A DNA stretch of 64,000 nt from a bacterium (GCA_021373255.1 JAJFTD010000123.1:2351-66350); one strand, 5' to 3'. Positions 7,888-55,881 are shown, counted from the first letter of the stretch. Numbers and translations: made by a program. The notes: generated by a model from the letters alone, not told the origin.

Positions 7888-7985
7888 TTCTACTTCCCAT
7901 ACAATAAATATCAGAGACTAGCTCCGAGGAATATTATACACGAGATTGATGCGCAAAAGTTGTAGAACAATCGCGTATCTTAAAC

Positions 7986-8014: not shown

Positions 8015-8052
8015 AAGCATGAGGTTGCGTTATTCGTGATCAGATTTGGAGG

Positions 8053-9090: not shown

Positions 9091-9095
9091 CCGTT

Positions 9096-9851
9096 TTATT
9101 CGTCTTCGCTTTCCATCTCACCGACCTTGAGCTGGACGTCTGCCCTCTCTTCAATCCTCTCCACACGGCCGTCGCGAATCCATACGATACGGTCTGAAAT
9201 GTCGAGCATTTTGAGGTCATGCGTGGCGGAGATGATGGTGACTCCCTGCTCCCTGTTGAGCTTTCTCAGGAGTGCGATAATTTCCTTGCCGGTCTTGAGG
9301 TCAAGGTTGCCTGTCGGCTCATCGGCGAGGATAATCGCGGGATTATTGGCAAGCGATCTTGCAATGGCGACGCGCTGCTGCTGTCCACCTGAAAGCTCAG
9401 TCGGCTTGTGATGGAACCGCTCACCAAGGCCAACCAGCCTCAGGAGTTCCATGCCTCTTTCGATACCCTCATCCTGCGGGGTACCTGCAAAGACCGTAGG
9501 AAGCACCACGTTTTCCAACGCCGTCATAACCGGAATCAGGTTAAAACTCTGGAAAATATAGCCGATAGTGCGGCAGCGGAGGTAGGCCAGTTCCTGAGCG
9601 TCGAGCTGAGCCATGTCGACGTCATTGATGAACACCGAACCCGACGATGGCTTATCCAATCCACCAACCATATTAAAGAGCGTGGACTTACCCGACCCGG
9701 ACGGGCCCATTATCGATATATACTCACCTTTGTAGATGTCGAGTTGTATGCCCTTCAACGCTTGAAGGGTCTGGCCGCCCATTGTAAACTCTTTGATAAG
9801 GTCTTTAGTGCGGACGACATATTCTCTCTTAGGAGCAGTTGCCGTTGCCAT
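9096..9851 (-). CDS. ABC transporter ATP-binding protein, MacB/LolD/FtsE type
   Basis: Walker A 'GPSGSGKST', signature 'LSGGQQQRV', Walker B 'ILADEPT'. It lies immediately downstream of an FtsX-type permease gene. Confidence 0.9.
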   Translation of the reverse strand: MATATAPKREYVVRTKDLIKEFTMGGQTLQALKGIQLDIYKGEYISIMGPSGSGKSTLFNMVGGLDKPSSGSVFINDVDMAQLDAQELAYLRCRTIGYIFQSFNLIPVMTALENVVLPTVFAGTPQDEGIERGMELLRLVGLGERFHHKPTELSGGQQQRVAIARSLANNPAIILADEPTGNLDLKTGKEIIALLRKLNREQGVTIISATHDLKMLDISDRIVWIRDGRVERIEERADVQLKVGEMESEDE

Positions 9852-9893
9852 TATATATTGTCACCTCGCAACGATGTAAAGGATCAGTTGACT

Positions 9894-39819: not shown

Positions 39820-40263
39820 TTGAGATTAACCTGTTTTGTATGCAGTATAGTAGTATTAGCCACTTTGATTGGTTGCGGTGGTGGAGACGGTGGTGGATCG
39901 GCCGGCCCCAGTGTCACGATTGTTGTACCTCCAGGGGCAGCCCCTACCGGAATAACACCATCAGTGACCTATAAATCCGCAAGCCAGCTTCCTAATGAAA
40001 TCAGTCCAACCATATTCATTGCCGCTGCGCAGTGTTTGCCGGCAGGCACAGAATTCAGCACGCGAGCAACACTGTCATTCCATCTGGCCACACCTTTAAC
40101 GAATGGAATATCTCTCGGGCTCTTTGAGTGGGATGGTACAGGTAATTTTATAGAGAAAGATGTGCAGGAGTATACTATTGCCATCAGCTCTGACCGAATG
40201 ACAGTAAATGTTCATGTAGATAACTTCAGCCAGCAGGAATACTACGCTTTGCTTAAGATATAA
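39820..40263 (+). CDS. Small lipoprotein (147 aa)
   Basis: Lipobox 'ATLIGCGGGDGGG'. TTG start has GGAGG 9 nt upstream. Confidence 0.6.
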   Translation: MRLTCFVCSIVVLATLIGCGGGDGGGSAGPSVTIVVPPGAAPTGITPSVTYKSASQLPNEISPTIFIAAAQCLPAGTEFSTRATLSFHLATPLTNGISLGLFEWDGTGNFIEKDVQEYTIAISSDRMTVNVHVDNFSQQEYYALLKI

Positions 40264-40299
40264 AAACTACTGGACTTGTTAACAGGAACCAAACATAAA

Positions 40300-40330
40300 G
40301 GCGTGCGGAAAACTCCCGCACGCCTTATAT
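40300..40330. terminator. Bidirectional rho-independent terminator
   Basis: ggcgtgcgg aaaactc ccgcacgcc (40300-40324), flanked by aaa on one side and ttatatatt on the other, between convergent genes. Confidence 0.75.
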
Positions 40331-40380
40331 ATTCTTCTATCACCTAGAAACCTTCCGACAATCAACAAAATACTGTAGAT

Positions 40381-41067
40381 TTACTTTGCCGGCTCTTCAA
40401 TAGCAGTGGCACCGGCTTTTTCATTACTGTCTTTTCCAGATTGCTCATCGTTGATAATCTGTGTTTTCAGCTTAGCCACTGCGTCCCCAGCAGCAAGTGC
40501 GCGCATATCCTCTTCTTCTGCACTAACTGCTGATTGTGGAGTGCTTCCAGTCACCAACAATGTCTTCACTGGCTTTCCACTTCGAACGTTGACCAGTTCT
40601 ACCGCAACAGTCATCTGTGCCGTTTTCTTGGCAGAGTCAAACCGATAGTCCTCAATCGAGCCAGACATATAGAAGTCAGCTGAAAGTAACTGGGCAAGCT
40701 TAAGACACTTGGACCGATCCTCAGAGAATGGTGCGGAAACATCTTGCGTTTTGAGGCTGGCATCTTCTTTTGCACGCTTGATTGGTGCGAGCCGATCATA
40801 GAACATGTAAACCCAATACTTATTATTTCCCGAGAGCATGCTCCGAAGAGCCGATGCAATGTCTTCTCCAAAAGTATTAGGTATATTTACGCTCGCAGAT
40901 TTATCAAATGGAAATACTACAAGTGAAGACGAAGAAGTAACAGTAGCGCTCTTCTTTTTCGACTTCAATAATCCGAAAAGTGCTGCATCGGCTGACCCGA
41001 CTGCCATGGCACTAATTATGGCGATCAAGCTCAAGCTGAGCCAGAGCCGAGTTCTTCCGTTGATCAT
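40381..41067 (-). CDS. Secreted LpoB/CsgG/TolB-N-fold-like protein (228 aa), last gene of the envelope locus
   Basis: Signal peptide '...AMAVGSADA'. 'LVVFPFDKS...GEDIASALRSML...LSADFYMSGSIED...AQMTVAVELVNVRSGK' is paralogous to the N-terminus of the 605-aa protein. GGAGG RBS is present. Confidence 0.65.
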   Translation of the reverse strand: MINGRTRLWLSLSLIAIISAMAVGSADAALFGLLKSKKKSATVTSSSSLVVFPFDKSASVNIPNTFGEDIASALRSMLSGNNKYWVYMFYDRLAPIKRAKEDASLKTQDVSAPFSEDRSKCLKLAQLLSADFYMSGSIEDYRFDSAKKTAQMTVAVELVNVRSGKPVKTLLVTGSTPQSAVSAEEEDMRALAAGDAVAKLKTQIINDEQSGKDSNEKAGATAIEEPAK

Positions 41068-41113
41068 CGTAAGATAGCCTCCAAGCTTATGAATCAGTAA
41101 AAGTCAATGCGTA

Positions 41114-41137
41114 CGGTCCGAGCATTTGCTCGGACCG
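41114..41137 (-). terminator. Intercistronic hairpin (giant gene to 228-aa gene)
   Basis: cggtccgagc/gctcggaccg, a 10-bp stem with a 4-nt loop and no strong T-tract. Confidence 0.4.
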
Positions 41138-41163
41138 CGCTCTCATCAAATAAGCACCAGCAA

Positions 41164-44100
41164 CTACGGTATTGCCGGCGGTGCATCAAGTTCTTCTGCA
41201 TTCGCTGCGGGAGCCGCTAACTTTGCTCGACTCGTCAGCGAAGTAAGACCCTTATAAGTCGTATTCGGATTAATGATCAGTTCGCAATCAACGAATGTTT
41301 TGATCCAATATCCTGACCACGACTTCAATACTCGTTCTGCTCCAGCACGTGTAGCACTTACCAGAACGTATTGCTGCTGGTCAGCATCAAATCGCCAAGC
41401 ATAATCACGAATCCATCCAGCAGCACTGGCATCAGCAAGAGATTTCTCCACATTGAGGTATCTTACTTTAACCTCGCTAAATGGAATACCTGCATCTTCG
41501 TACGGAACAACGGTAGCACCAGTAGAATTCTTCCTCCAGTTGAAGAATATATTGCCGAACTGGTTCCATCCCGTATATACAGGGATCACACACGGTGCCA
41601 ATTCCGTCTGGCCCGTTACTGAATTGACCTGCGTACTGTAAGCCTTCGAATAGGCTTTGATCAGTCTGTATGTCCTATCGAATTCCAAAGGATATGTGGA
41701 ATTACCTGCAGCCAGTAATCCAGTGATATAGTCAACCTCACTTACAGACTCAGCCGGGTAATCTGTCTTCGGCTTAATCCATACAGCATCACCAGGTAGA
41801 ATTACAGGGAATGCCTGCAATCCATAACGGAAATATGCCCTGCCTCTCGGATCCCAGCGAACGATTTGCATCTTGCTGGCTCTCTCATACCCGAATATGG
41901 AACTCGGATCTGTGCCATTTATTACCATGGGCGGCGTGATCATATCAACACATGGCAAGTTAGCCGTTGCATTATTCGGCTGTGACGGATCCTTAACGGC
42001 AACTGTTCTCATAGGTCCGCCTACGGTTATCCTAACTCCATCATTCAAGCCATCATAGCTCTCATCAGTTTGAGCCTTGTCCCAGATAGAGTCGCCAGCC
42101 CAAAGCAAGCCCAAGCGCCATTCGCCACTCGTGCTTAATGTCAGGTTTTCACCCGTTATCAGAGCAGCATCGGAACCCTTAGGATAGCTGGGTATCTGGA
42201 CGTTTCCGATCCAGTAATCCGGGTCCATAAACTCATCATCAGTAAGCATTGTAACACTGGCTGTAAGTGAGAGTGATGTGGAATCAGGCTTGGTAACCTG
42301 CACCACAATATTCTCCAGCATAACATTTGAAGGCTTACTCGTTAAAGCATTTTTCGGGAACTTGATCTTTCCCTCAAGAAGCACATTTGTCCCGACTGCG
42401 GCATAAGATAGGCCCATAGCCGCAGATGGATTAGACTCATCTGCTTTTACCAGTTTTATATCATCGAAGAACGGTACCAGTAAAACCGGACCGAGCTTCA
42501 GTGATGGCGTTGCGGCAGCATCTGTACCATCTGTAGCTTCTACTGTATAGTTATGTTTTCCAATAGTAAAGCTAGTTCCAGGAACCGTTACCTTATATTC
42601 TACTCCAGCCGCGTAATTAGGTGTAGTGCCTGACACTGACCGAGTCATTACGAGCCGCTGTTGAGCAGTGGTGCCGCTATCAATTACCAGAGTTAAACCC
42701 TCTACTCTAGATGTGCCAGACATTGCTACAGGAGCATCGCCATCTGCATCCACATATGTAGCCTTGTAGGTAAATAACTGGGTAGTCTTACCAGCAGCTG
42801 GATCAACAGTATAACTTGTTATGGTCGGCGCAGCATTATGGTCTCTTACAACCAAATTATCTTCATATAAAGGATCAGCATATTGATAGCCATCATAGGC
42901 TTCAAATGCAACTGTATAACTTCCTGGAGCAAGACCTGTCTTCTCGGCATTGAAAACAGCGCCGGTCGCATAAACAGGGTTGGCATCCTTCGGAGTCATC
43001 TTTATGATTATCTCTGCAGGAGTCGCGCCAGCCCTTATTAATCTAACATAAACTTGAGGCGTCGGCGCATTCGTTACAGACCCGTCATAGTCGCGATATG
43101 TAACCGTAAACTTGAACGTTGTTGCAGTCTGTCCGGAGAACGGCTGCATAGTCTGGCTCGTTAGTGTCGGCTTGTAGTTTACCTTCAGAGAGTAATCACC
43201 GGCAGACGTAGCTGGGAATCTGACCTTGTGGTCCGGATCGTAGCCATCCGATGCCTCGAAGTGATAATAATGATTACCCTCAGGCAAGCTAGTCTGCTTA
43301 ACCTTAAGTAACACATCCTGAGTATAATCCGTCACAGGTGTCGTTACCGGATCCATTGGGATTCCAGATGTCTGGTTATCAAATACCAGCTTCACATAAC
43401 CCTGGACTCCATCATGATAACTAGGTGGATCGTTATCCGCGTCCTTATAGTTAATCCTGAATGTCAATGTATCACCGGCAAGGAATATTGTGCTTGTCGA
43501 ATGCTTGTCGAAGTAGTTCACGTATACCGGCGGCTGCACACCAGACTTCGGTACGTATTTAATATACACGCGCTTCGTTCCACTAGGAAGCGGAGTAGTC
43601 AGGGTGATCTTTGTATCATTGTCCTGTAGTGCCGGACCGCCCAGATAGTAATTTGTGTCTGTTACAGCGCAAGTCGAGGCAACATAAACACCAACAATAG
43701 AATCTATGCTATCGATCGCATCTGGAGTAACTGACAGCAGCGAACTTCCAATGTTACCGACAGTGCCGAACTGCACCATCGTAGCCGGCATCGCACCAAG
43801 AGCAGGGCTCAGACTTATCACGTTTCCTACTGTCGGATCAAACACATGTGCCGTGTCATAGTAATTTTGATCTAACGCAGTATTAGCATTGGCATTAAGG
43901 AACACCCCATTAACCTGGCGAATATTCTGCACCTCAGGAGCGGTCCAATTGCCATTAGAATCATAATTCAGCTCTACCTGTGTTGAGTCTACCACGGTAG
44001 CCATTTTCATCTTTGGACCGTAATAAAGCGATGTCTGCGCAGTATTGCTGATTACAGGTGCCTTGTTATCACTAGGCGGTGCGCTGGTAACCTTAGGACC

Positions 44101-47100
44101 CACGCCTTCGTTACCGGTCGGGTATATCACCTTATCTGAATAAGGCAGTGAGTCAATAAGCCAAGCCGGCTTATCCTGGTAACCACTACGGGCAGTAAAC
44201 AGATACTTATGATCACCAACCGCCAGCTTCGGAATAATAAGTGTATAAGTGATTCCAGCAACAGCAGTTCCATTCCCAGACGAGCGCATAAGCAATCCGT
44301 TGATCCTGAATGTTGTATCTTTCACAACATTATCGCCATTGACTCCAAGATCATCAGCTGCGATTGTGAGTGTATCCGTGCTATTACTCTGAATTAAATA
44401 TACACGATTGATTAACGGGCCAGATGTTATCTGCATCAGTTTTCCAGCGAACTGGTCCCTGGTAATTGTCGCAGCGGCACCCTTCTCATCTGTGAATGTT
44501 GCACGAAGTAAACGGAACTTATTACTTTCAAGCGGATCCGGCAGAGGAGCTTCGCTTACTTTGCCATTATAGAAATGATCCGTATTACCGTTGCAGTCGA
44601 CCCACACTCTTGGTGAACCGGAAACAGCCACTCCTGAAGCTACATCTCCAATTTTGTAAACATACGGCATATCGCCATCGGCATCCGAATAGGTAACACT
44701 ATAAGTAACGCTTGCATTAGCGGATATGCTGCCGCCAGAAGGATTGGGGCTGGCCGCGCCATCTGCAAGTTTTGGCGGGTTATTTACCCAAGGACCATCG
44801 AAGTCACGAATATCACCATCGCTGTGATCGTATTTAGGATTGTTCTTTGTATACACGTCAAAAATCGCTACCGCAGTACCATCAGAAGCCTCAAAGTGGT
44901 ATGTATGCTTGCCACTTGAGAGCGCTGTCGTTGAATATGTATAAATAGCTCCATCACGATATGCAGGCGTACCTTGAGTAGTTAACGTCATATCATATTG
45001 CTGATCATCGATTTTCACTCTTACATAAGTCGGAGCCTGTCCATTAGGACCATCCTGGTCACGATATTTGATAGTATACACATACTGTGTGGTTCTGCTA
45101 CCCTGAATAGGCGAAACAGCATCCTTCCGAACATCTACCAGTTCCAGCGTCGGAGGTGTATTGCCGCCAATTTTCACTTGCATCTTTGTGCCGAAAATAT
45201 AAGTTGCTTTTAGTTTACTGGCAGACACAGGATTAATGAAGCGAACCTTTGCATTTAAGCGGTCTATATTATAATCACCGAGTTGGTAGTAATTCGCCCA
45301 GAGTTGCGTGCTTATATCTGCACTCGGTATAGCACTAGTTAATTTCAGGCTACCGTCACCCAGGTTGTCTGGATAGCTCGTTCGTCGCGGGTCATAATAA
45401 TTTGTGCCCTCGCGCTCTGCTGACTGCCAAACGCCCAGAACACCATTCAGCGGATCATTATCGCCATCCGTTCCCTTTACATAAAACCGAAGAGGATACT
45501 GCGTCGGCAAGAATGCAGTGAGTGGATCTGGATCAATAAAACTTGGAACGCCTCTACCCTGATGCGTAAAACGGATATCGGAATACTTGATGTATACTGT
45601 ACTCCCCTCGATATTATCGCCTACCTGAGTCAACCAGATTGAGCTATCGCCACAGTTGTATCCAGATCGGAAATAAGAGATGAGCACACGATTATATCCA
45701 GATTCATCTCCATTAGCAGCAGCAATGTTGAGGTGTACCTTATTATCAGTAGGACCAAAATTGCCAGGACCAACATAAAGATTTGTTGTTGTATCATCAC
45801 CATATATATTATAAACGGCGTCAACATCACGTATTCTCGACGGATAATCGGGTATTACTGTCTTTCTGGTTTGATCAGAAGTATCGACCCAACCGTATTG
45901 CCATTCATTAGTACCGTTCCGTCCTGGTTCGACATATAGATTGCTTGAATCTAGATTGCTTGTATCGTTTCTCAGCGCCCCAATTGATGTATATACGCCC
46001 TCGACACTTGCTATCAAAGATGGATACTCAGGTACTACGACGCACTCATCAGACAGCGGGTCGGTATTAGCAATCGCATGGCCCCTCATAACAGAATAAC
46101 GACTATCAGCCGGATCAACAGTGGCGTCCTGCCACCCACCCTTTACATCGTCTAACCGGAAGAGCTCGTTTGGATTAACGCCTGCATTAATAACCTGGGC
46201 ATCATAGATCGTGCCTGCTGGTGCAGGGAGTTCATTCGATATTGGACCCACGATCGGGGCACCGGTAATCGGAACTTCAATCTTATAATTAATATCGTCC
46301 AATTTTGTCATGTCCTGATTGCGCACAACACTGGCTGAAGGAGAGGGCGCAGTAGGATCATTAGCTGGACGATATTCAGCCCAATTCACGCCATCAAATG
46401 CGACAAAGGCATAATAGTACTGTTTCGAATACTCGTGTTCAGACTCTTTGCCCTCGAGTCTCGTCTGATAGTGATATGCTACCCCATCGCTGTATACGGA
46501 ATCACCGGAATTGTCTTTGACCATATCGTGGCCCTTATCCCAAAGGATAGTCTTGCCATCAGGGTAGTCAAGGTCATTAAGTTTGCTATCAGGCTGGAGT
46601 TGGCCGATATACACCTTCATAACAGTGGGGCCCTCTTTGGCACTATCACTGTCGCTGTAGGTAACATGGAACGTCCATATAGTCGCTGAGTTGGAAGAGC
46701 CGTCAGCAGAATCGAAGCCGCCATTGGTAAGAGTTGGCGGTTTATTTTCAGTGATTGTAGGGCCTGTGAACCAACCACCAGTAACAGGTAACTTTGTTGT
46801 CTCGCCAGCCACCAGATCATTAGGGTCTGTTTGACGGCCCCAATCATCTACGAACTCGAACCTGTATTCCCATATTCCCGGCTCCATTGTTGAAAGATCC
46901 GAACTCGCCACGGTGAATTTGTAGTAGATACCATTTTTGTACACTGTGGAATTATTGTTTAAAGGATTCAACAATCCATCCGGCAACATCCTGAATTGCT
47001 TCACACTGCCAGGATTATCCTTTTTCCTGATATATAGATAGGCAGCATAAGGACGCTGACCATCTGGATCAGTATATCTAACTTTATATTCGAATCCTGT

Positions 47101-49209
47101 ACCTTGCTCCCCACTCGTATTGCCTAAGCTATAATCACTAAGAACACAGGGATCATTCACATATGGCCCGGGCACATAGTCATTATCGTCATAGACTGTT
47201 TGGCCGTATTGATCAGTGGTGCTCATAGTAGGCACCCACCAATCACTGAATGTTTCACCATTGTAGGTATAATGATCAGGACGCTTTGGCCATATAGTTC
47301 TTTGTATGCCATCACTGGCCTCAAAGTAATATGTATGTGGGCCTTTATCTAATTTCAGTTTATATATATACTTAACACCTGTTGTGTAATTCTTTATTTG
47401 ATCAGCCGGGTCTATAGACATCGTGTAAGGTGTATAAGTTGACGCAGATGTATTCCCCGATTTAGAACTCGCTTTGTTTATCCATAACCGGATATATTCA
47501 GGAGCTTTACCATCAACCTGCTTAAAGACAATCTGGAATGTATTTTCAGTCGAAGCGGTAGAGCCTGCAAATTCAGCACGAACTGCATCAAATCCATTGC
47601 TAAAAGCTCCCGGCAATTGAGGGTTCACAGCTCGTTTGAATGGAAGTATCGTGCCGTAGAAACGCCCACCACCGTACTTTTGCATATCATCGTATCGTAC
47701 GCCTGATAAGTCAGATGTGGGCATAGTGAGCGCACAGGTAACCTTCGGATGCTCACTCGACTTCCATGGATATGGAGTTGCACTTGCATCAGCATAGCCA
47801 GGCGCTTTAACTGCCCTATCTAGATGAATGGTGTAATCAAAAACCGGATCGGCAAAAGGATCGATATTGGAATTCGCAGTTGTATACCTGCGGTGTGCAT
47901 CCCTTTTAATATCGGGATAATCCGTAACTGCGCGCGACAGTATTGGATCCAACGCAGTATTGTTTCTCGAACCAATATAACTAGGATATACTCCCCATTG
48001 TTGCGCAAACGTTGGATCAGGGAAGCAGGAAAAGACGAAAGGCTTTGGACTCCCATTGTATCCAAGAAACTGAAGGGAATCATCAGAACACCCAAAGAAA
48101 TACTTATGAGTGCCCAACGCAAGAGACTCATAAGCACTATTGCGGCACTCAAAGCCAGGGAATAAGTAAGAACTATTTGTATAAGTTCCACTAACACCAA
48201 ATTGATGTGCAGGTAATAATCGTACAATATATACCTGTTTATCTGGGTCAAGAGCGGCTGCATCTGGATTCTCTGGATACATCGGGAAAAGCTGATAATC
48301 CCCAATGCCACTTGCATCTAGATATAAGACAACACCACTCATCGGGACTTCTTTATCAGTAGACCCACTTTGATCTACCAACTCACTCTTTACCCATGGT
48401 AATGGTGGTAGGTGATCTCTATTGTGATATCGTACACGGAAAACAAATTGCTGATTGCCTGATCCATCATCTGGAGACGTTTGATTAGCATCTGCACCTG
48501 GTTCAATAGTTAATGGATCAACATCAACGTCTGCAGGCCAAGCCTGATCCGGAGCACAGGTCAGCCAGTCACGGTCACCACTGACACCAGCGTAGTCGAA
48601 ATTGACTATATTACCAACACTGTCCCTCATAGGATTCTTGCTATCATACACCGTAACACTAACAGCACTACTCTTTACTTCTTCTGGTGAATAAGCAAGT
48701 GCTATTATGCCGCCAATCGCTCTGGGAGCACCTGTTTCTGTACGTAATTCAGGAGCATATAACACAGGATGACCATAAGGATCCCATACAAGGCACTGTT
48801 GGTTCGTAGAGGGTATCCAAGAATTGGAATCAGCAGCATTTCCAGTGACATAGGTGGCCGGGTTCTGCGCAGGATTGCTCATATTCAAGCCTGCGCTGAC
48901 ACTTACTTGGTAATGTTGTTCATCACCAACAGAATAGGCATAGAACATTGGATACTTAACGTCACCGGGAAAACATAAGTAAACAAGCCCAAAACCTGTT
49001 GGTGTAGCATCACCCTTGCCGGCTGGCAAAATAACTTTATCAGGATTATCATCATTCCATACCGCATCAAACGTCCATAATGAATTGGCGGTGGCAGCCG
49101 CGGGTAGTGCGGTAAGTTTTAATGATGCCGCGTTAGCCACTCCCAATAATATAACAACCAACGCCGAAGACAGCAGTATCTCGTAAAGGCGCTTGAAGCG
49201 TATTATCAT
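41164..49209 (-). CDS. Giant secreted repeat protein (about 2681 aa), adhesin or surface-layer-like
   Basis: ATG at 49209 (GAAAGGAAG RBS) gives the signal peptide 'MIIRFKRLYEILLSSALVVILLGVANA'. About nine modules end in 'YxFxAxDG', and at least five 'GVY...NYY...LPxG..V.I.Y' motifs are present. It carries the C-terminal domain shared with the next two genes. Confidence 0.9.
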   Translation of the reverse strand: MIIRFKRLYEILLSSALVVILLGVANAASLKLTALPAAATANSLWTFDAVWNDDNPDKVILPAGKGDATPTGFGLVYLCFPGDVKYPMFYAYSVGDEQHYQVSVSAGLNMSNPAQNPATYVTGNAADSNSWIPSTNQQCLVWDPYGHPVLYAPELRTETGAPRAIGGIIALAYSPEEVKSSAVSVTVYDSKNPMRDSVGNIVNFDYAGVSGDRDWLTCAPDQAWPADVDVDPLTIEPGADANQTSPDDGSGNQQFVFRVRYHNRDHLPPLPWVKSELVDQSGSTDKEVPMSGVVLYLDASGIGDYQLFPMYPENPDAAALDPDKQVYIVRLLPAHQFGVSGTYTNSSYLFPGFECRNSAYESLALGTHKYFFGCSDDSLQFLGYNGSPKPFVFSCFPDPTFAQQWGVYPSYIGSRNNTALDPILSRAVTDYPDIKRDAHRRYTTANSNIDPFADPVFDYTIHLDRAVKAPGYADASATPYPWKSSEHPKVTCALTMPTSDLSGVRYDDMQKYGGGRFYGTILPFKRAVNPQLPGAFSNGFDAVRAEFAGSTASTENTFQIVFKQVDGKAPEYIRLWINKASSKSGNTSASTYTPYTMSIDPADQIKNYTTGVKYIYKLKLDKGPHTYYFEASDGIQRTIWPKRPDHYTYNGETFSDWWVPTMSTTDQYGQTVYDDNDYVPGPYVNDPCVLSDYSLGNTSGEQGTGFEYKVRYTDPDGQRPYAAYLYIRKKDNPGSVKQFRMLPDGLLNPLNNNSTVYKNGIYYKFTVASSDLSTMEPGIWEYRFEFVDDWGRQTDPNDLVAGETTKLPVTGGWFTGPTITENKPPTLTNGGFDSADGSSNSATIWTFHVTYSDSDSAKEGPTVMKVYIGQLQPDSKLNDLDYPDGKTILWDKGHDMVKDNSGDSVYSDGVAYHYQTRLEGKESEHEYSKQYYYAFVAFDGVNWAEYRPANDPTAPSPSASVVRNQDMTKLDDINYKIEVPITGAPIVGPISNELPAPAGTIYDAQVINAGVNPNELFRLDDVKGGWQDATVDPADSRYSVMRGHAIANTDPLSDECVVVPEYPSLIASVEGVYTSIGALRNDTSNLDSSNLYVEPGRNGTNEWQYGWVDTSDQTRKTVIPDYPSRIRDVDAVYNIYGDDTTTNLYVGPGNFGPTDNKVHLNIAAANGDESGYNRVLISYFRSGYNCGDSSIWLTQVGDNIEGSTVYIKYSDIRFTHQGRGVPSFIDPDPLTAFLPTQYPLRFYVKGTDGDNDPLNGVLGVWQSAEREGTNYYDPRRTSYPDNLGDGSLKLTSAIPSADISTQLWANYYQLGDYNIDRLNAKVRFINPVSASKLKATYIFGTKMQVKIGGNTPPTLELVDVRKDAVSPIQGSRTTQYVYTIKYRDQDGPNGQAPTYVRVKIDDQQYDMTLTTQGTPAYRDGAIYTYSTTALSSGKHTYHFEASDGTAVAIFDVYTKNNPKYDHSDGDIRDFDGPWVNNPPKLADGAASPNPSGGSISANASVTYSVTYSDADGDMPYVYKIGDVASGVAVSGSPRVWVDCNGNTDHFYNGKVSEAPLPDPLESNKFRLLRATFTDEKGAAATITRDQFAGKLMQITSGPLINRVYLIQSNSTDTLTIAADDLGVNGDNVVKDTTFRINGLLMRSSGNGTAVAGITYTLIIPKLAVGDHKYLFTARSGYQDKPAWLIDSLPYSDKVIYPTGNEGVGPKVTSAPPSDNKAPVISNTAQTSLYYGPKMKMATVVDSTQVELNYDSNGNWTAPEVQNIRQVNGVFLNANANTALDQNYYDTAHVFDPTVGNVISLSPALGAMPATMVQFGTVGNIGSSLLSVTPDAIDSIDSIVGVYVASTCAVTDTNYYLGGPALQDNDTKITLTTPLPSGTKRVYIKYVPKSGVQPPVYVNYFDKHSTSTIFLAGDTLTFRINYKDADNDPPSYHDGVQGYVKLVFDNQTSGIPMDPVTTPVTDYTQDVLLKVKQTSLPEGNHYYHFEASDGYDPDHKVRFPATSAGDYSLKVNYKPTLTSQTMQPFSGQTATTFKFTVTYRDYDGSVTNAPTPQVYVRLIRAGATPAEIIIKMTPKDANPVYATGAVFNAEKTGLAPGSYTVAFEAYDGYQYADPLYEDNLVVRDHNAAPTITSYTVDPAAGKTTQLFTYKATYVDADGDAPVAMSGTSRVEGLTLVIDSGTTAQQRLVMTRSVSGTTPNYAAGVEYKVTVPGTSFTIGKHNYTVEATDGTDAAATPSLKLGPVLLVPFFDDIKLVKADESNPSAAMGLSYAAVGTNVLLEGKIKFPKNALTSKPSNVMLENIVVQVTKPDSTSLSLTASVTMLTDDEFMDPDYWIGNVQIPSYPKGSDAALITGENLTLSTSGEWRLGLLWAGDSIWDKAQTDESYDGLNDGVRITVGGPMRTVAVKDPSQPNNATANLPCVDMITPPMVINGTDPSSIFGYERASKMQIVRWDPRGRAYFRYGLQAFPVILPGDAVWIKPKTDYPAESVSEVDYITGLLAAGNSTYPLEFDRTYRLIKAYSKAYSTQVNSVTGQTELAPCVIPVYTGWNQFGNIFFNWRKNSTGATVVPYEDAGIPFSEVKVRYLNVEKSLADASAAGWIRDYAWRFDADQQQYVLVSATRAGAERVLKSWSGYWIKTFVDCELIINPNTTYKGLTSLTSRAKLAAPAANAEELDAPPAIP

Positions 49210-49258
49210 CTGGTATCTTCCTTTCAAACTCCTGTAAACCATGTAAACTACCAAACAT

Positions 49259-49285
49259 AGGGCTGCCAATAGCTGTGGCAGCCCT
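49259..49285 (-). terminator. Intercistronic hairpin (677-aa gene to giant gene)
   Basis: agggctgcca/tggcagccct, a 10-bp perfect stem with a 7-nt loop, followed on the minus strand by atgtttggtagttt. Confidence 0.5.
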
Positions 49286-49306
49286 TGCCCGTTATCCATT
49301 TATTTA

Positions 49307-51340
49307 CTAATAGCCACCCGGTAGGGAATTAACAGCACTACCAGGGAATATTGCAGGCCGGAACACCAGCGTCACAGGCGTCTTCGCCCTGAACCAGTAG
49401 CCCCGCCATGGAACGAGAAGTGTATCGTTAGTGCTTAGACTGTCGTAAGCAGATCTATCTGAATTCCAGGCAAATACAGTACGGCTAACTAAGCCCTGAG
49501 CCACAGCTTGATCGAAGGATACGGTCAAGTTAGTCGCGCTATTATATACCTGCAACTGGCCAATATAAATCGGGTATACTAACGGGTTTCCAACCATGTT
49601 CCAGCCAGTTACCAAGTTAGTTGTTTGCTGGATACTCTGCTTTCCATACTCTTCTCCAACAATAGCTGCATCCGTGGCAATGTCGTAAGTCTTACTCGAT
49701 CCCATAGATAAGCTATAAACAGCCATCCAGAAAGCTTTGCCCGACTCAAACTGCGTTATGGGAACATAATTCTGCGTTCCCGAAGAATCATAATACAATG
49801 CACTATAGTATCCAGCGTTAATTCCAAATACATGGCTGATTGATGGATTGTTAAATGTAAATGGAACGCTCATCAACTGATAGCCATAACGCATAGCAGC
49901 TTTCTTTGCCGCAGGCACGATTATCTTTCTGCCTACAATCTGCTGCCACCCACTAGTATCACGGAACAATACATAGTAGACTAACTCCCCAGCCGCTTCT
50001 CCGTTTGCTTCAACCTGCCACTCTACCGGAGTAGATTCGGAATTGATCGGTACATTGCCGATTTCCTGAATACTGGTAGAATTAGTGCCCTCTGCAAGTT
50101 GCAAACCCTTCGGGAGGTAAAGATATGCAGTTACATTTTGCAAATCATAAGGACCTGGGTCCGTATCGGTATTATAAAGATATGCCTTGATCGTAAACGG
50201 CGAAGGCATCATTTGCGTCACACCAGTCGTGGAATCATACTGCAGTGAGTTTGGTCCTTGCACAGCTGCAGCAATGCTATCCTGACGAATCTTCGTACCC
50301 GACCTATAAGTCCACAACGTAGTAGCAACCGCATTACCAAAATAGGTAACATAAGTACGAGATATATGCGAAGCAAGAGCAACTTGCTTCCACTCCACCA
50401 TATATGCAAGGTCGTCTATAGGAACCATAGGATCGGGAACATAGTTATTTGGAAGATTATCCGCAGGATCCGTTAACCACGTACTCAGTGTAGCTAGATT
50501 ATCTAATTCGCCGATAGCAATAAAATCAGGTGACGTACAGTCCTGCTCACGAAGCGTTATGCGTGTACGTGTCACCGGGCTATCAACACTATCGTAGATC
50601 TCAAACATCGAAGGAATCTTGCTCCCAGCAAATGTATTGCCTGCGAACTGATCCGGCAATCCAGGAGTTCGCGCAAGTCCAGACCCGGTTACAAATGGGT
50701 AACCTGCTTTATCGGTATCTTCAACCACAGCATCTAGGTACAAGGAGATACCGGCTTTAACTAACTGAAGAGATGCATTGGTAACTGTATATTCAAAGCG
50801 TACCTGGTCACGCACCAGACTTATATGAACTCTAACAGTCACTGTTCCACTGCTGTCGGTCCAATCACCCTCTATATATGGGCCGCCTATACCACGCCCA
50901 TAACCAGACATTGGTACATCATAAACCCTCGGATATTTCGTCCAACTGCCCATTGTAGGGTCACCGACTACTAATGGAGAATTATCCCCTATCTTAACTC
51001 GAGAATAATTCCAGTGACCACAAATAACCGGCGGTCTCCAAACCAACCATTGATTATCATCATCAGTAGTTTCAGGATCGCCAACACGATTACTGATACC
51101 ATATCGACCACCAACCTGGAAGACTTCACCGTCGATATCAGAAATCATCTCACCCCAAACACCAAATTCAAACTCTACGTATTTATTCGAAAGTGTAATC
51201 ACATATGGGGGATTATCAGGATTAGGATGCATTGGATCAGGCGGTTCATATAAATGGTATTGTGCGATTGCAGGAACCGCCAGCAATATCGCAAATGCGA
51301 TCACAACAATCAATCTTAAGATAGCCCTCTTATAAGTCAT
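49307..51340 (-). CDS. Secreted hypothetical protein (677 aa) with a CARDB-like segment and the shared C-terminal domain
   Basis: ATG at 51340 has an upstream GGAGGAG, giving the signal peptide 'MTYKRAILRLIVVIAFAILLAVPAIA'. 'YLYLPKGLQLAEG...VEWQVEANG' is CARDB/S-layer-like. C-terminal motifs are 'GWNMVGNP' and 'WRGYWFR'. Confidence 0.85.
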   Translation of the reverse strand: MTYKRAILRLIVVIAFAILLAVPAIAQYHLYEPPDPMHPNPDNPPYVITLSNKYVEFEFGVWGEMISDIDGEVFQVGGRYGISNRVGDPETTDDDNQWLVWRPPVICGHWNYSRVKIGDNSPLVVGDPTMGSWTKYPRVYDVPMSGYGRGIGGPYIEGDWTDSSGTVTVRVHISLVRDQVRFEYTVTNASLQLVKAGISLYLDAVVEDTDKAGYPFVTGSGLARTPGLPDQFAGNTFAGSKIPSMFEIYDSVDSPVTRTRITLREQDCTSPDFIAIGELDNLATLSTWLTDPADNLPNNYVPDPMVPIDDLAYMVEWKQVALASHISRTYVTYFGNAVATTLWTYRSGTKIRQDSIAAAVQGPNSLQYDSTTGVTQMMPSPFTIKAYLYNTDTDPGPYDLQNVTAYLYLPKGLQLAEGTNSTSIQEIGNVPINSESTPVEWQVEANGEAAGELVYYVLFRDTSGWQQIVGRKIIVPAAKKAAMRYGYQLMSVPFTFNNPSISHVFGINAGYYSALYYDSSGTQNYVPITQFESGKAFWMAVYSLSMGSSKTYDIATDAAIVGEEYGKQSIQQTTNLVTGWNMVGNPLVYPIYIGQLQVYNSATNLTVSFDQAVAQGLVSRTVFAWNSDRSAYDSLSTNDTLLVPWRGYWFRAKTPVTLVFRPAIFPGSAVNSLPGGY

Positions 51341-51511
51341 CTCAGAAGTCTCCTCCAAGCAAATCGGGTATTATACTGTTATGGATTCCGCAGCGAACAT
51401 CCCGACACCAGCCGTCAGCGGATATCATTATTATTTTCCAGCTCACGTCATTGAAAGCCAGATAAGAATACCACTCGTAAGCGATACTCTTATCTTATCA
51501 ATCCCTATGTG

Positions 51512-53845
51512 CTAGAATATCGTCATCACAAGGGAATCAGTAGATTTGACTCCGCCCACATAAGTCTTAAGCCAATAGCCGTGATACGGCTGCAGCAGTT
51601 CCTGCTTGTTCACTATCTTGTAGCCCGGCGTGGGCGTAGTCGAGTATGAATAAACCGCCGGAGAAACCCATCCAGCCGTTACAGCATCGGCAAAAGACTT
51701 GACCTGCCCCTTGTAGGAAAACAGCGCGTTCCACCAGGAAGTTTCTCGATTATATGGGTTGCCGATCATATTCCAACCCTGGTATAGATAAATATTAAAG
51801 GCATTATCAGTCGGAGTAAGGTAGTGTTCTGTATTGAAGCTGTCATTAACGACTGCATCCTGCTGTAGAACCAACCAGAAGCCGGTACCCGCTGGGTAAG
51901 AATATATATTGGTCGTACCCTCTGTATAATAACCGCCACCGGTATACCAATAATAGCGTGTTGTCGGATCCAACGAATCAGGCATCCAATCTTGAGGATT
52001 GGACCACGCCAGCCAGTCCTGCGGATATGTATAATACGGAATCGTCCGGGTGGTCGATGTCTTCGGCAGCCAACGGAACAGCCTGGCTTTGGTCGAACCA
52101 GCAGAAGAAAAGTTGACAGGAAGGCCATTGCTTGTCTGTAATAAAGTCTCAGGAAATACTGATACTAAGTTACTAGAAGCTGTACTCGTAAATTGATACG
52201 GGAATGCAACCAGATGAATACCAGCAGAGAATGTCACACTTGCGACCGTAAACTGTGCCCAATCGTAAACGTTTGAACCATCAGCTTTAGATTCAGCGGT
52301 AGCATAGACCTCATGGCTGCCGGCTCCCAATGGGCTATCTGTATTTACTAGTGGCCAAGTGAAAGCTACAGCGGTTCGATTAGTATTCAAATAGCTATTT
52401 ACATTTGTGCTATCAAGGATAACATACGTGTCATCATCCAGATTGTCTGGAATTCCATCCTCATTAGTGTCAGGATAATCCAAGTAAACCTTTAATGTAG
52501 ATGTCTCAATTCCTTTTATAGCAATCTTGAACTCAGGAGTGCTTCGAACACTACTGCCCTTAACCGGCTGTTGAATCCTGAGACTCGCCGATGATAATGA
52601 AGCCGCCACATCCAGTATTCCAGCACCATACGTGGTAGTATCAAGCATAAGACCACTGGGCGCTCTAGCTGTGCTAATCAATTGGCTCCTAACCTGAGAT
52701 GCAGGCACCCCAGCGCTCATCAGCAAAGCTGCTGCGCCAGAAACATGGGGGGCAGCCATCGATGTGCCTTGATAGGATTCATAGTTATATGACGTTTTGC
52801 CCTCAGCGTCCCAGTTAATAATAGTGCTGTATATGCCACCGTCATCACCGAGGCTCAGATCACCACCAGGAGCTGCAATCTCAATCTTACCGTAATTGGA
52901 GTAATATGCTATATCTTCATAGGGTCCTAAAGCCGACACTGCGATGACTTCAGCCCAGTTAGAAGGAAAGTGCGAATAACTTGTGCTGTCATTACCAGCA
53001 GCACCAACCAGAATTATACCGGCGTCATTAAGTTCCTGTATCTTCGCGTGCTCAATCGAGTCATCGTAATAATTACCATAACTCATATTTACGACATCAG
53101 CACCATTCAACATCGCATAATCAAGGCCGCGAACAATCATATCAGTAGTGCCGCCAAGCGGGCCCAATACTCTAACAGGAAGGATCTTTACGTTATCCCA
53201 GCAGACACCAACCACACCCATGCCATTGTTGCCTTGGGCAGCTATCGTGCCAGCAACGTGGGTGCCATGAGAGGAACCTTCGCCGCTATTTACAGGCATT
53301 GGGTCTGAGTCATCATCAACACAGTCGTAGCCATCAAGAAGTCTGTCTCCCAAATCCGGGTGCGGAGCCACACCGGTGTCATTAACAGCTACGATAATAT
53401 CCGAATTGCCTTTCGCGGTATCCCACGCAGCAGGCATATTGATCATCCGCATTCCCCACAGCTTATCCCAATAAGTATCATTAGGTACTGCGCAGGGGTA
53501 GTTCATATAATTCGGTTGGATGTGATCGATAACCCACTTCACGGGCTGGGAAGAGGTAGCAAAGCGAGTAGGTGTCCGAGCATACGACCCAGTCAGCCGA
53601 ATCTGGTAGGTATTATCTACAGGGAGCACTCTAACAATGCCGGCACCCATCCTACTGACCAACTGCTCAACTGTTGAATAGCTCGTTCCAGGCTGCACAT
53701 GAATAATATACTCATTAGGTACATACTGAACATTGCCGGTATCGGCACTCGCCACAACTGCAGCAGTTAGCCACAAACTCATCAGCATCAGAAAGGTAAT
53801 GCCGGTGAGTAATATCCTCTTTGACCGACGCACGCGCGGTTCCAT
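51512..53845 (-). CDS. Subtilisin-like serine protease (peptidase S8) with I9-like propeptide and the shared C-terminal domain
   Basis: Triad contexts are 'AVNDTGV' (Asp), 'HGTHVAGTIAA' (His) and 'GTSMAAPHVSGAAALL' (Ser). A signal peptide is present, and the C-terminus carries 'GWNMIGNP' and 'YHGYWLK'. Confidence 0.92.
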   Translation of the reverse strand: MEPRVRRSKRILLTGITFLMLMSLWLTAAVVASADTGNVQYVPNEYIIHVQPGTSYSTVEQLVSRMGAGIVRVLPVDNTYQIRLTGSYARTPTRFATSSQPVKWVIDHIQPNYMNYPCAVPNDTYWDKLWGMRMINMPAAWDTAKGNSDIIVAVNDTGVAPHPDLGDRLLDGYDCVDDDSDPMPVNSGEGSSHGTHVAGTIAAQGNNGMGVVGVCWDNVKILPVRVLGPLGGTTDMIVRGLDYAMLNGADVVNMSYGNYYDDSIEHAKIQELNDAGIILVGAAGNDSTSYSHFPSNWAEVIAVSALGPYEDIAYYSNYGKIEIAAPGGDLSLGDDGGIYSTIINWDAEGKTSYNYESYQGTSMAAPHVSGAAALLMSAGVPASQVRSQLISTARAPSGLMLDTTTYGAGILDVAASLSSASLRIQQPVKGSSVRSTPEFKIAIKGIETSTLKVYLDYPDTNEDGIPDNLDDDTYVILDSTNVNSYLNTNRTAVAFTWPLVNTDSPLGAGSHEVYATAESKADGSNVYDWAQFTVASVTFSAGIHLVAFPYQFTSTASSNLVSVFPETLLQTSNGLPVNFSSAGSTKARLFRWLPKTSTTRTIPYYTYPQDWLAWSNPQDWMPDSLDPTTRYYWYTGGGYYTEGTTNIYSYPAGTGFWLVLQQDAVVNDSFNTEHYLTPTDNAFNIYLYQGWNMIGNPYNRETSWWNALFSYKGQVKSFADAVTAGWVSPAVYSYSTTPTPGYKIVNKQELLQPYHGYWLKTYVGGVKSTDSLVMTIF

Positions 53846-54063: not shown

Positions 54064-55881
54064 TTATAGATTAGGCGCAGGCGGGAGCCCACTAATCACG
54101 AACCTGTTCTCTTCTCCCTGAACCCAAGCCTGGCTTGTATCGGAAATATGCCTGCAATAAACTGTCCACTTCATAACTTTTTCCGAATAGTTAGCTAGTG
54201 TAGCAGCAAGGCTAATACGCTGAGCTGCAGGCAGTGAGATGGTCGGGTTAGTTTCGTATATTGGGCTGGACATATTGTTCCAACTCGGAGCTGATCCCGG
54301 AATTACAGGCTCAACTTTCACATAGTAGATGTCTGCCCCATCCTTGCGATTCCACTGCAAGTTTGTGATGCCCTGCTGAAGATCACTTATCTGAATCTCA
54401 GGAGCCGGCTCGCTAGCAACATAGGCCGGCGAAACAACATCCTGATTCCGAACTGGCTCTATAGCCGTAGCCACTATGGTGTTACTAACCGGCGTATAAT
54501 AATATTTTTCAGTATCGGATGATGTATCATCATCGTCAGTGGTCGAATCGTCGTCATCATCTTCATCAGTGCCAGTCACAACCTTATAAAGCACCCTGAC
54601 CTGATACGAGTGGGTAGTGCCGTAGGGTTCTGAAGCTAACTTATAACTCGCAGGACTGTAGCTTGTGGCTGGATTACTGGCAATCGTGAGGTAGTTAACT
54701 GTGACATCCCCACTGACACCGTAGATATCCTTGATGGTGGTCTTGCCCAAGTCCCAAGCTGTAGTCGGATCAAGAACTTTCACAGGGCGAGCGCCCTCAT
54801 CGAAGCTGTCTCTTAAAATCTGGAGTTGCAGCACATTAGTTCCATGCCCTAGCTTGCTGGGATCCCAACTAACCTGCGCCTGATCACTGGCGCCAATGTT
54901 CAATGCATCTTCTGAACCGCGGCCGGATTTGAACAACGATGCCAAACCGAAGACAATACCAGCGCCTAACAGGAATTTACCTATCTTGCTGATGGTTCCC
55001 TTGTGGGCCTTACCAGCCGCTGGAGCTCCAGTGGGAAGTGGGGCCGACGCAGCCGAACCGCCCAAATTTGGCATATCAAAGATAGCCCTGGCTTTGTCCT
55101 CGGGCTGAATGCCTCGCATGGACTTGATCACCTTGGCTTCGCTGTCGTTAGGGGAAACTGTGCGGATATCAATATAACCAATGATCTCTTTGTTCCGCAA
55201 AACGATCATTCGCATTCCAGGCTTTAGGCCATCGCGCACACCCTTGTTCAACATAACCTGGTCTTCGCCGATATTCATCTGAATAGTGGCCTCTGGAATT
55301 ACATAGTCCACCATTGTTTTCACGGCGAGGAATGCGGCATTGTTCACAGCCTCAACGATAAGTGCATCATCATCAGGAGCATATCCAACTCTTGCGCTGG
55401 ATGTACCAGTTTGAACAGCGCCGTTGAGGATCTCGCCCGAAGCCTGATCGATCATCTGAACGGCGAGCGTAACCGTGGCGCGCCTGGTAGCACCTGAACC
55501 CGCCAGTTGGACGGATTTGATGGCACCCTCAAGCATTGCATCCGCGCTAAGAGCCTCTCCTAATCTCACTAAGCCGATCTTGGAAAGCGGCATATGAAGG
55601 TCGAGTTTCTCCATCTCAGACTTAATCTGAGTCCGGGTGATGCTTACATCATACCGGCTAGTCTTGCTCATCTCCACGACTACTGCATCAGTCGCGAGCC
55701 TTGCAAGCAAATCGCCCTGTACTCCGGACTCGTTGACAAACTCAACGACTCCCACGGAATAAGTGGGCATAAGCTGCGCTCTGGCCGGTGACAGCGGCAC
55801 GGGCGCTATGGTGGATACGAGCGCTATGATGAGCGCGTAGCATATGCTCCTCACAGCCCTGCATTGCATTAGCTGCCTCAA
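54064..55881 (-). CDS. Multidomain envelope protein (605 aa): LpoB/CsgG-fold-like domain, TM segment, acidic linker and Ig/FN3-like domains
   Basis: TTG start has GGAGG 10 nt upstream. 'YSVGVVEFVNESG...LSADAMLEGAIKSV...ATVTLAVQMIDQASGE', internal TM 'FLLGAGIVFGLASLF', and 'DEDDDDDSTTDDDDTSSD'. Confidence 0.8.
   Translation of the reverse strand: MRQLMQCRAVRSICYALIIALVSTIAPVPLSPARAQLMPTYSVGVVEFVNESGVQGDLLARLATDAVVVEMSKTSRYDVSITRTQIKSEMEKLDLHMPLSKIGLVRLGEALSADAMLEGAIKSVQLAGSGATRRATVTLAVQMIDQASGEILNGAVQTGTSSARVGYAPDDDALIVEAVNNAAFLAVKTMVDYVIPEATIQMNIGEDQVMLNKGVRDGLKPGMRMIVLRNKEIIGYIDIRTVSPNDSEAKVIKSMRGIQPEDKARAIFDMPNLGGSAASAPLPTGAPAAGKAHKGTISKIGKFLLGAGIVFGLASLFKSGRGSEDALNIGASDQAQVSWDPSKLGHGTNVLQLQILRDSFDEGARPVKVLDPTTAWDLGKTTIKDIYGVSGDVTVNYLTIASNPATSYSPASYKLASEPYGTTHSYQVRVLYKVVTGTDEDDDDDSTTDDDDTSSDTEKYYYTPVSNTIVATAIEPVRNQDVVSPAYVASEPAPEIQISDLQQGITNLQWNRKDGADIYYVKVEPVIPGSAPSWNNMSSPIYETNPTISLPAAQRISLAATLANYSEKVMKWTVYCRHISDTSQAWVQGEENRFVISGLPPAPNL

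Follow-up and report, generated by a model that had tools for sequence, protein, structure and literature searches.

A New, Widespread C-Terminal Module on Three Consecutive Secreted Proteins of an Armatimonadota Bacterium

Introduction

Why would three consecutive genes for otherwise unrelated secreted proteins, one of them a protease, end in the same domain? The question is raised by a 64,000-nt stretch of DNA from an Armatimonadota bacterium (GCA_021373255.1 JAJFTD010000123.1:2351-66350; the whole stretch is hereafter called the window), in which a giant repeat protein, a 677-aa protein, and an S8 protease are encoded next to one another on the minus strand. An initial annotation had aligned their C-termini in five blocks, had matched the shared domain to no named family, and had read one conserved module on unrelated cargo as a sorting or attachment signal. 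Here, we report that the three C-termini are copies of a new, unnamed, and very widespread domain family, whose fold is predicted with confidence and is unlike any solved structure that we searched. We tentatively favor the view that the module binds and retains its proteins on a common extracellular target, and we weigh this view against several alternatives, including a sorting signal.

The Three C-Termini Are Copies of One Module

The C-termini of the giant, 677-aa, and S8 proteins proved to be homologous. When the exact C-terminal stretches given in the initial annotation were compared pairwise by BLASTP, the 677-aa and S8 proteins matched with E = 7e-8, the giant and S8 proteins with E = 6e-6, and the giant and 677-aa proteins with E = 3e-4. 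Furthermore, an independent hidden Markov model (HMM), built from 30 distant family members that are each at most 33% identical to any window copy, and from which the window sequences and their close relatives were excluded, matched exactly three of the 349 stop-to-stop open reading frames (ORFs) of at least 60 aa in the window: those of the 677-aa protein (E = 1.2e-34), the S8 protein (E = 1.8e-29), and the giant protein (E = 5.2e-28). Neither this HMM, even at E <= 10, nor a motif scan found a further copy in the window. These results bear out the proposed block-by-block alignment, since the blocks are significant both in the pairwise comparisons and against the profile (E <= 5.2e-28 for all three copies). 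All five blocks are real and coincide with columns conserved across the family, and the boundaries first proposed agree with the HMM envelopes to a few codons.

By HMM envelope, the module is 236 aa long on the giant protein, 186 aa on the 677-aa protein, and 233 aa on the S8 protein. The core is ~170 aa, the spread among copies is due to insertions, and the module overall measures ~170–240 aa. The columns conserved family-wide read GW.l.SvP / pG.GyW / GWNqIGnPf / sl.eA..aGWi / L.PW.GYWi. All three window proteins carry the pattern by which the new family can be recognized, namely GW.l.SvP / W.P..Y / G.GYW in a first unit and GWN.IGnP / A..aGW / YD..Y / PW.GYW in a second. The conserved positions are mostly Trp, Tyr, Gly, and Pro; such aromatic-rich positions are compatible with a glycan-binding face but also with a hydrophobic core.

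The Module Is a Duplicated Unit with a Confidently Predicted Fold

Within the module, a unit of ~85 aa is present twice in tandem, the product of a duplication. In a 40-sequence alignment, one half matched the other by hhalign with E = 3.1e-13 and a probability of 98% over 73 columns, and the same comparison with only seven sequences gave E = 3.9e-5. Each unit consists of a strand GWNLISxP, followed by WDP..Y and by a second strand PGxGYW(VK). Three distant relatives (P0011, P0012, and P0019) show the GWNL(I/V)S.P ... G.GYW pair twice in succession. Blocks 1 and 2 of the initial annotation fall in unit 1 and blocks 3 to 5 in unit 2, a repeat relationship that it did not describe. Similarly, the C-terminal end of a protein from a Thermoplasmatota-binned contig is made up of two copies of the unit-2 type, which confirms that the unit is the building block of the module.

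We predicted the structure of the 677-aa protein's copy with AlphaFold2. With 40 sequences, the model reached a pLDDT (predicted local distance difference test) of 90.3 and a pTM (predicted template modeling score) of 0.86, with all five models at pLDDT 89.5–90.3; with seven sequences, the values were 82.3 and 0.80. The predicted fold is compact and mostly beta, with 14 strands of 3–7 residues and two short helices. A model this compact and this confident fits a domain that folds autonomously.

The Family Is Unnamed and Very Widespread

Does the module belong to a known family? Searches of the three whole window proteins at E <= 0.1 gave no Pfam or NCBIfam model that covers it; nor did any Pfam model cover it in 40 modules scanned by themselves or in 62 relatives scanned at full length, or any NCBIfam model in these relatives. 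In the source annotations, module proteins are called 'hypothetical' or are named after their other domains. Sequence searches of the PDB with 7- and 40-sequence profiles gave nothing significant (RemZ, 8gl8_D, at E = 0.13; a MarR protein at E = 1.4). Likewise, a Foldseek comparison of two models with the PDB gave no match at E <= 0.001, the best being at E = 0.02 with a TM score of ~0.2. Thus, no known lectin or carbohydrate-binding module (CBM) fold was recovered, and the earlier failure to name a family holds across Pfam, NCBIfam, and the PDB. Literature searches with the module's motif strings, for the conserved gene cluster described below, and on Armatimonadota envelopes and sorting returned nothing relevant.

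Several weak matches deserve mention. The region matched in RemZ (Fjoh_0803) comprises residues 694-733 and 847-870. RemZ is a Flavobacterium type IX secretion system (T9SS) substrate, and the matched region falls in its structurally unresolved passenger (PMC10994853). The match is a lead only; if real, it would tie the module to gliding-motility adhesins. We rejected a relationship to cupins and bicupins (5hi0, an oxalate decarboxylase; the cupins 4uxa and 3fjs), which matched at E ~0.02-0.03 with TM scores of 0.15-0.3 and root-mean-square deviations of 7-20 A. The (bi)cupin double-stranded beta-helix resembles the module in being two tandem small beta-barrel or sandwich units, and no other theme recurs in the weak structural matches; however, the module has no metal-binding His/Glu motif, and this similarity is not evidence of relationship. 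A match to the SPP1 Dit protein was also rejected as weak (TM ~0.2). In BFVD, a library of predicted viral structures, the better model found one protein that shares the fold (A0A8D9C8P8, TMq 0.60) and is itself uncharacterised.

To size the family, we ran an exhaustive HMMER search of 1.84 billion cluster representatives, defined at 50% identity. It returned 10,388 representatives at E <= 1e-3, 2,901 at E <= 1e-10, and 110 at E <= 1e-30. A word-indexed protein search undersamples the family, giving 12–24 matches and missing query members, and was not used for this purpose. More than 10,000 representatives without a Pfam or NCBIfam model constitute an annotation gap, and naming the family would label thousands of 'hypothetical' surface proteins.

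In a scan of GTDB species genomes, the closest relatives (50–55% identity) came from metagenome-assembled genomes (MAGs) of Armatimonadota, which assigns the window to this phylum. The module was also found in Fimbriimonadales, Chthonomonadales, Abditibacteriota, Bacteroidota (Cyclobacteriaceae and Flavobacteriales), Salinibacter/Rhodothermales, Balneolaceae, Ignavibacteriaceae, Krumholzibacteriia, Marinimicrobia, Nitrospirota, and Desulfobacteraceae, as well as in one gammaproteobacterial and one Thermoplasmatota MAG. For the last of these (L035, 2051-3917), the archaeal assignment is that of the MAG bin only; the same contig also encodes a multi-pass membrane protein and, as judged by eye, a possible CapB-like ligase and a possible IS110-like transposase.

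Position, Copy Number, and Cargo

Where in its proteins does the module sit? We examined 166 family proteins, the 150 best-scoring matches and 16 others, a sample biased towards the architecture of the query. In 99 of these proteins, no more than 15 aa separated the end of the last module from the C-terminus, and in 143 no more than 50 aa did; a tail of more than 100 aa followed it in 19. Many proteins contain two full-length copies ~170 aa apart, and for seven the search of cluster representatives reported three module stretches (e.g., P0022, P0035, and P0057). The position is therefore strongly biased to the C-terminus but not always C-terminal, because tandem, internal, and penultimate copies exist.

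The long tails that follow the module are Por_Secre_tail domains, FlgD_ig-like beta-sandwiches (T9SS-type C-terminal domains, or CTDs, that resemble those of PorU and PorZ), or CarboxypepD_reg domains. In P0019, the order is cargo, module, and then Por_Secre_tail (38 bits against a cutoff of 23). A Marinimicrobia protein (L053) has the same order, also with Por_Secre_tail above the cutoff, and in P0095, P0097, L018, and L014 the module lies upstream of FlgD_ig. A precomputed PF18962 match is present in P0174 and in several further matches, its position within them not having been read. Wherever a recognized sorting domain of the Por_Secre_tail or FlgD_ig-like kind is present, the module is upstream of it.

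The cargo includes S8 and M64/VWA proteins, alpha/beta-hydrolases, metallophosphatases, PQQ, BNR, NHL, and FG-GAP propellers, and CarboxypepD_reg, and also fn3, GxGYxYP, NAGPA, LamG, Glucodextran_B, BACON, and polysaccharide deacetylase domains. Such diversity indicates that the module is a generic add-on, and it confirms the initial description of one conserved module on unrelated cargo. Some proteins consist of little else: P0012 (235 aa) and P0019 (340 aa) have a short N-terminal region and the module, with or without a CTD, and P0174 (342 aa) may be of this kind, by its length only. Consequently, the functional part of such a passenger can be the module alone.

A Conserved Gene Cluster in Armatimonadota

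Is the arrangement peculiar to this bacterium? An HMM scan of the six-frame ORFs of 79 loci, together with BLAST searches with the flanking window proteins, recovered the order rpsA, coaE, an optional module protein (1,250–1,900 aa), w605, S8 with module, the 677-aa protein with module, the giant protein with module, and w228. The whole order or a large part of it is kept in ~25 loci of Armatimonadota, with Abditibacteriota, Fimbriimonadales, and Chthonomonas among them. Orthologues of w605 lie directly upstream of the S8 gene in 24 loci, and those of w228 lie downstream of the cluster in 18. The matches of w605 to the Pfam families LpoB, MreC, and LptE are weak and all fall under the curated cutoffs.

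In a nearest-neighbor analysis of 40 modules, 39 grouped by the type of their host protein. Similarly, the window modules score 150–250 bits against their own orthologues versus 26–40 bits among themselves. This grouping implies that the three paralogous modules are older than the diversification of the phylum and that none has since left its host protein.

In Fimbriimonadales and Chthonomonadales (L010, L014, L018, and L020), every cluster protein carries after the module a mutually homologous tail of ~255 aa (e.g., the last 258 aa of the protein at L014, 8585-11296). The tail ends in ...P(I/L)V(L/V)TR-COOH, and its last 70–80 aa are FlgD_ig- or T9SS-CTD-like, resembling the CTDs of PorU and PorZ. 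It is missing in the clade of the window (L002–L006). Because the tail is present or absent by lineage, what stays constant is the module, and what varies is the CTD-like tail. That Armatimonadota should have a T9SS-like CTD is noteworthy in itself.

The extreme C-termini past the module carry conserved endings of their own. In giant-type proteins, the module is followed by ...PNT(T/S)YNG, by 20–35 aa of S/A/T-rich linker, and then by (D/E)-x-P-P-(P/A)-x-P-(E/D/K/N)-COOH. This terminal motif recurs in ~35–40 cluster representatives of 533–4908 aa, and a similar D.EKPPAP motif stands ~55 aa into the tails of the sister-lineage proteins. From its sequence, the giant-type ending might serve as a short polyproline motif that is recognized at the terminus. 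The 677-aa protein has in common with its orthologues an ending of 11–12 aa past the module, of the form ...FRPxxxPxxxV(T/S)xxxGG(Y)-COOH; in the window, this protein terminates in ...FRPAIFPGSAVNSLPGGY-COOH, with ...PGSAVNSLPGGY as its last residues. The S8 protein ends in ...KSTDSLVMTIF and is the only one of the three whose copy is Phe-terminal.

The window is part of the chromosome; uvrB, transketolase, transaldolase, rpsA, and coaE lie close by. The G+C content at 40001-52000 is 0.45–0.465, compared with 0.49–0.53 in the flanks. Despite this low G+C content of the cluster, the rpsA-coaE synteny across the phylum argues against a recent horizontal transfer.

What Might the Module Do?

Could the module be what keeps these proteins on the cell? 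We tentatively favor this answer, without putting it beyond an even chance: the module would be a non-catalytic retention or binding domain that co-localizes the S8, 677-aa, and giant proteins on a common extracellular target, likeliest the cell's own envelope. Passengers exported by the Sec pathway would, in their mature form, be held by the module on the shared target, for which an envelope polymer of the same cell is the most plausible candidate, and all three cluster proteins (S8, 677-aa, and giant) would be kept together at the cell surface. The module would then stay on the mature protein and probably not be removed as an export signal. Binding itself, the nature of the target, and retention on the mature protein are what we infer from position, copy number, and conservation.

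Binding and retention are favored because the module can be repeated within a protein, is second to last where a CTD follows, makes up most of some small proteins, keeps its Trp, Tyr, and Gly positions strongly conserved, and occurs on every structural product of a conserved candidate envelope cluster in which a protease is also encoded. A terminal export signal should occur once, stand strictly at the end, and not precede a further signal of its kind. The module departs from each of these expectations, and binding or retention explains more of what is seen. Tandem copies, in particular, are typical of binding modules that gain avidity and are not expected of a terminal export signal.

Several points weigh against this reading. 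The conserved aromatics may be only core residues. T9SS cargo is already anchored by its CTD, which would make a second envelope anchor redundant there; in such cargo, the module may bind an external target or serve only as a membrane-proximal spacer. The conserved endings (DxPPPxP-COOH of the giant type and PGGY-COOH of the 677 type) hint that the terminus is recognized, which would suit a sorting pathway. Finally, the positional statistics carry the sampling bias mentioned above.

One alternative, which we consider unlikely but not negligible, is that the module is a sorting or secretion signal: a dedicated outer-membrane machinery would recognize the folded module, the S8 protease would possibly cleave it, and the LpoB-like flanking proteins would belong to the machinery. 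The strong C-terminal bias on diverse cargo is what such a signal would produce, and secretion signals made of a folded beta-sandwich CTD are well established, as in the T9SS (PMC10994853). Moreover, no folded element comes after the module in any of the three proteins in the clade of the window, motifs conserved at the extreme C-terminus lie beyond it, and the cluster kept across the phylum encodes a protease together with two envelope-type proteins. These points are countered by the tandem and internal copies and by the position upstream of bona fide Por_Secre_tail and FlgD_ig CTDs when these are present, including in the sister Armatimonadota orthologues. The module, at 170–240 aa with variable insertions, is also far above the size of known CTD signals; phyla with very different envelopes, and one Thermoplasmatota-binned contig, carry it; and the cluster holds no candidate translocon gene. 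Of the reading first offered, attachment is thus the half that stands as the best explanation, and sorting is the weaker half in view of the tandem copies and those upstream of sorting domains. The description as one conserved module on unrelated cargo is supported, whereas a rare signal specific to this locus is not, given 10,388 representatives in many phyla.

Could the target instead lie outside the cell? As an unrecognized carbohydrate-binding or adhesin domain, the module would direct its proteins to an external polymer or to other cells, a role that we again rate as improbable but by no means negligible. Tandem multiplicity and aromatic-rich conserved positions would suit such a domain, as would some glycan-linked partners (GxGYxYP, NAGPA, Glucodextran_B, BACON, polysaccharide deacetylase, and LamG) and the small proteins made of fn3, module, and CTD, in which the module would be the functional part. 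However, CBMs sit anywhere in their proteins, whereas the module is overwhelmingly the last or penultimate domain. Its cargo (proteases, phosphatases, propellers, and Ig arrays) is mostly unlike glycoside hydrolases, it shows no similarity to solved CBM or lectin folds, and it is retained across the phylum on three or four co-clustered proteins beside housekeeping genes.

A variant that joins the module to its endings must also be considered. The module and the conserved endings would together be the recognition element of an undescribed sorting or attachment pathway, with S8 as the processing enzyme and w605 and w228 as envelope components. Such a pathway, with the cluster kept across Armatimonadota as its core machinery, would correspond in function to the T9SS CTD and PorU or to the exosortase systems. 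We regard it as a long shot that is kept alive by the conserved residues at the very terminus, which look like a recognition motif. A tripartite sorting signal (LPXTG, PEP-CTERM, GlyGly-CTERM, or similar) was rejected, as the last 40 aa of the three proteins contain no terminal hydrophobic helix or basic tail.

Less probable still is co-assembly or oligomerization, in which the modules would bind each other or a scaffold (w605 or w228) to form a multi-protein surface structure. Every consecutive structural gene of the cluster carries its own diverged paralogue type, as distinct interfaces would, and a pseudo-symmetric build of two units is common among interaction domains; however, thousands of members occur on single unrelated enzymes, in other phyla, and without any such cluster. 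An inert spacer or stalk between the passenger and the membrane-proximal end or CTD is very improbable, for while a penultimate position before CTDs and a lack of catalytic motifs would allow it, near-invariant G, W, N, P, and Y columns across phyla and long persistence in each orthologue exceed what is usual for Ig or fn3 linkers, and proteins consisting almost wholly of the module exist.

Host Proteins and Neighboring Features

The giant, 677-aa, and S8 proteins each have a signal-peptide-like N-terminus, as read directly from the sequence (Table 1). In the giant protein, this start is followed by long repeats and then by the module. Its passenger, of ~2,400 aa, has no Pfam or NCBIfam match. 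Strand motifs of the form '...G.H.Y.FEA.DG...' recur in it (e.g., GPHTYYFEASDG, GKHTYHFEASDG, and GNHYYHFEASDG), and their sequence suggests an unrecognized Ig-like repeat. The first 30 codons of the ORF are probably untranslated, as a hairpin lies between the stop of the 677 gene (49307) and the probable giant start, and Met31 is the start of P0020. Orthologues with the same C-terminal module occur at L003–L006, L008–L010, and L048. At a further locus (L001; ENA contig_85606, 267 kb; 3516-11005), the giant orthologue is split into called genes of 1094, 114, 282, 434, and 334 aa, probably by an assembly frameshift error rather than by pseudogenization.

The N-terminal ~460 aa of the 677-aa protein also have no Pfam or NCBIfam match, and its orthologues are found at 19 loci. 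The S8 protein belongs to Peptidase S8: the Asp, His, and Ser motifs are intact (VAVNDTG, HGTHVAG, and GTSMAAPHV), and an additional prodomain match falls below the threshold. Elsewhere in the window, an unusual fusion of Peptidase_M28 and FtsX-like permease domains was observed.

Table 1. Features of the window discussed in the text (positions counted from the first nucleotide of the window).
Feature	Position (nt)	Strand	Description
M28/FtsX-like fusion protein	14893-20259	-	1788 aa; Peptidase_M28 and FtsX-like permease domains
Terminator-like hairpin	40326-40298	-	strong; follows w228
w228	40381..41067	-	secreted, LpoB-like (TolB_N-type); PF13036 E = 5.5e-6, 26.8 bits vs. cutoff 22.3
Giant secreted protein	41164..49299	-	2711-aa ORF; probable start Met31, nt 49209, giving 2681 aa = P0020
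Post-module linker and terminal motif, giant	41167..41250	-	S/A/T-rich, ends ...AEELDAPPAIP-COOH
Module on giant	41251..41958	-	aa 2448-2683 of the 2711-aa ORF; HMM envelopes 2448-2527 and 2546-2683; A2-HMM E = 6e-65
Giant module units			unit 1 CVDMITPP...PGDAVWIK; insertion; unit 2 GWNQFGNIF...AGWIRDYAWRFD...WSGYWIK
Giant passenger	41959-49209	-	long repeats
Hairpin upstream of probable giant start	49259-49285	-	10-bp stem
677-aa secreted protein	49307..51358	-	ATG at 51340
Conserved ending, 677-aa protein	49310-49342	-	past the module
Module on 677-aa protein	49343..49900	-	unit 1 GYQLMSVPF...SGKAFWMAV; unit 2 GWNMVGNPL...AVAQGLV...PWRGYWFRA
S8 protease	51512..53845	-	777 aa; C-terminal end 8 aa past the module
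Module on S8 protease	51539..52237	-	independent HMM envelope aa 542-774 of the stop-to-stop ORF
S8 module units			unit 1 GIHLVAFPY...(~60 aa insertion)...AGTGFWLVL; unit 2 GWNMIGNPY...AVTAGWV...PYHGYWLKT
Peptidase_S8 domain	52658..53404	-	PF00082, aa 148-396, E = 6e-50, 170.6 bits vs. cutoff 21.8
w605	54064..55881	-	signal peptide, weak LpoB/CsgG/LptE-like (TolB_N-type) N-terminal domain, central hydrophobic helix, Asp-rich acidic stretch

Comparison with Known Systems

By its last or pre-CTD position, the module can in practice mark surface and secreted proteins in poorly studied phyla such as Armatimonadota, Krumholzibacteriota, Marinimicrobia, and Ignavibacteria, and the rpsA-coaE-adjacent cluster may well encode a core structure of the Armatimonadota envelope or surface. 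If the module is a true anchor, it would be usable for surface display; if it truly serves in sorting, a new pathway of secretion or attachment would be defined by it.

How does the module compare with systems already described? The CTD of the T9SS (Por_Secre_tail, PF18962/TIGR04183, and FlgD_ig-like domains) is, like the module, a folded, all-beta, C-terminal domain on diverse Sec-exported cargo, and it frequently occurs in the same proteins. However, the CTD measures ~75–100 aa, whereas the module has 170–240 aa, is internally duplicated and repeatable, and stands upstream of the true CTD. Neither PF18962 nor TIGR04183 matched the three window proteins or the 40 modules at E <= 0.1. The lack of a CTD sequence match, together with the larger size, the duplication, and the upstream placement, indicates that the module is a passenger-side domain and not a CTD.

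CBM and lectin sandwiches share with the module a non-catalytic, beta-rich build, conserved aromatics, an occurrence on enzymes, and, at times, a tandem arrangement. The module differs in having no solved sequence or fold match, in its strong terminal bias, and in its mostly non-glycoside-hydrolase cargo. Membership among them was rejected, as neither the PDB profile searches nor Foldseek supported it, 143 of the 166 sampled proteins have the module near the terminus, and non-glycoside-hydrolase cargo dominates. An autotransporter or outer-membrane beta-barrel was rejected as well: there is no Pfam match, the strands of the model are 3–7 residues long, and among the three copies only that of S8 is Phe-terminal.

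The NCBIfam 'choice-of-anchor' families are conserved extracytoplasmic domains that lie N-terminal to lineage-dependent C-terminal endings. The module resembles them in preceding a Por_Secre_tail, a FlgD_ig-like tail, DxPPPxP-COOH, or nothing at all; it differs in that no NCBIfam model matches it, with NF041740 (choice_anch_T) among the models of the library. Tripartite anchors such as PEP-CTERM and LPXTG were not seen after the module in the proteins examined.

The Listeria GW modules, SLH domains, and CWB2 domains (the latter at the C. difficile slpA/cwp84 locus) are repeats that anchor proteins to the surface non-covalently. The window proteins and the 40 modules gave no Pfam match to SLH, CWB2, LysM, or Listeria GW/SH3_8 at E <= 0.1, and no such fold appeared among the 50 best Foldseek matches listed, which are mostly weak and of the cupin type. 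Furthermore, the hosts of the module are Armatimonadota and other, mostly Gram-negative, phyla. By analogy, nevertheless, the likeness to the surface-anchoring repeats may be instructive: these and the module are both tandem repeats of ~80 aa at one end of unrelated secreted proteins, and the GW modules even share a Gly-Trp motif. The logic of the locus with CWB2-bearing SlpA and Cwp84, where one anchoring module is common to a protease and to large surface proteins, would likewise be that of the window cluster. The role of the module is probably of a known kind, C-terminal targeting or retention, rather than a new principle.

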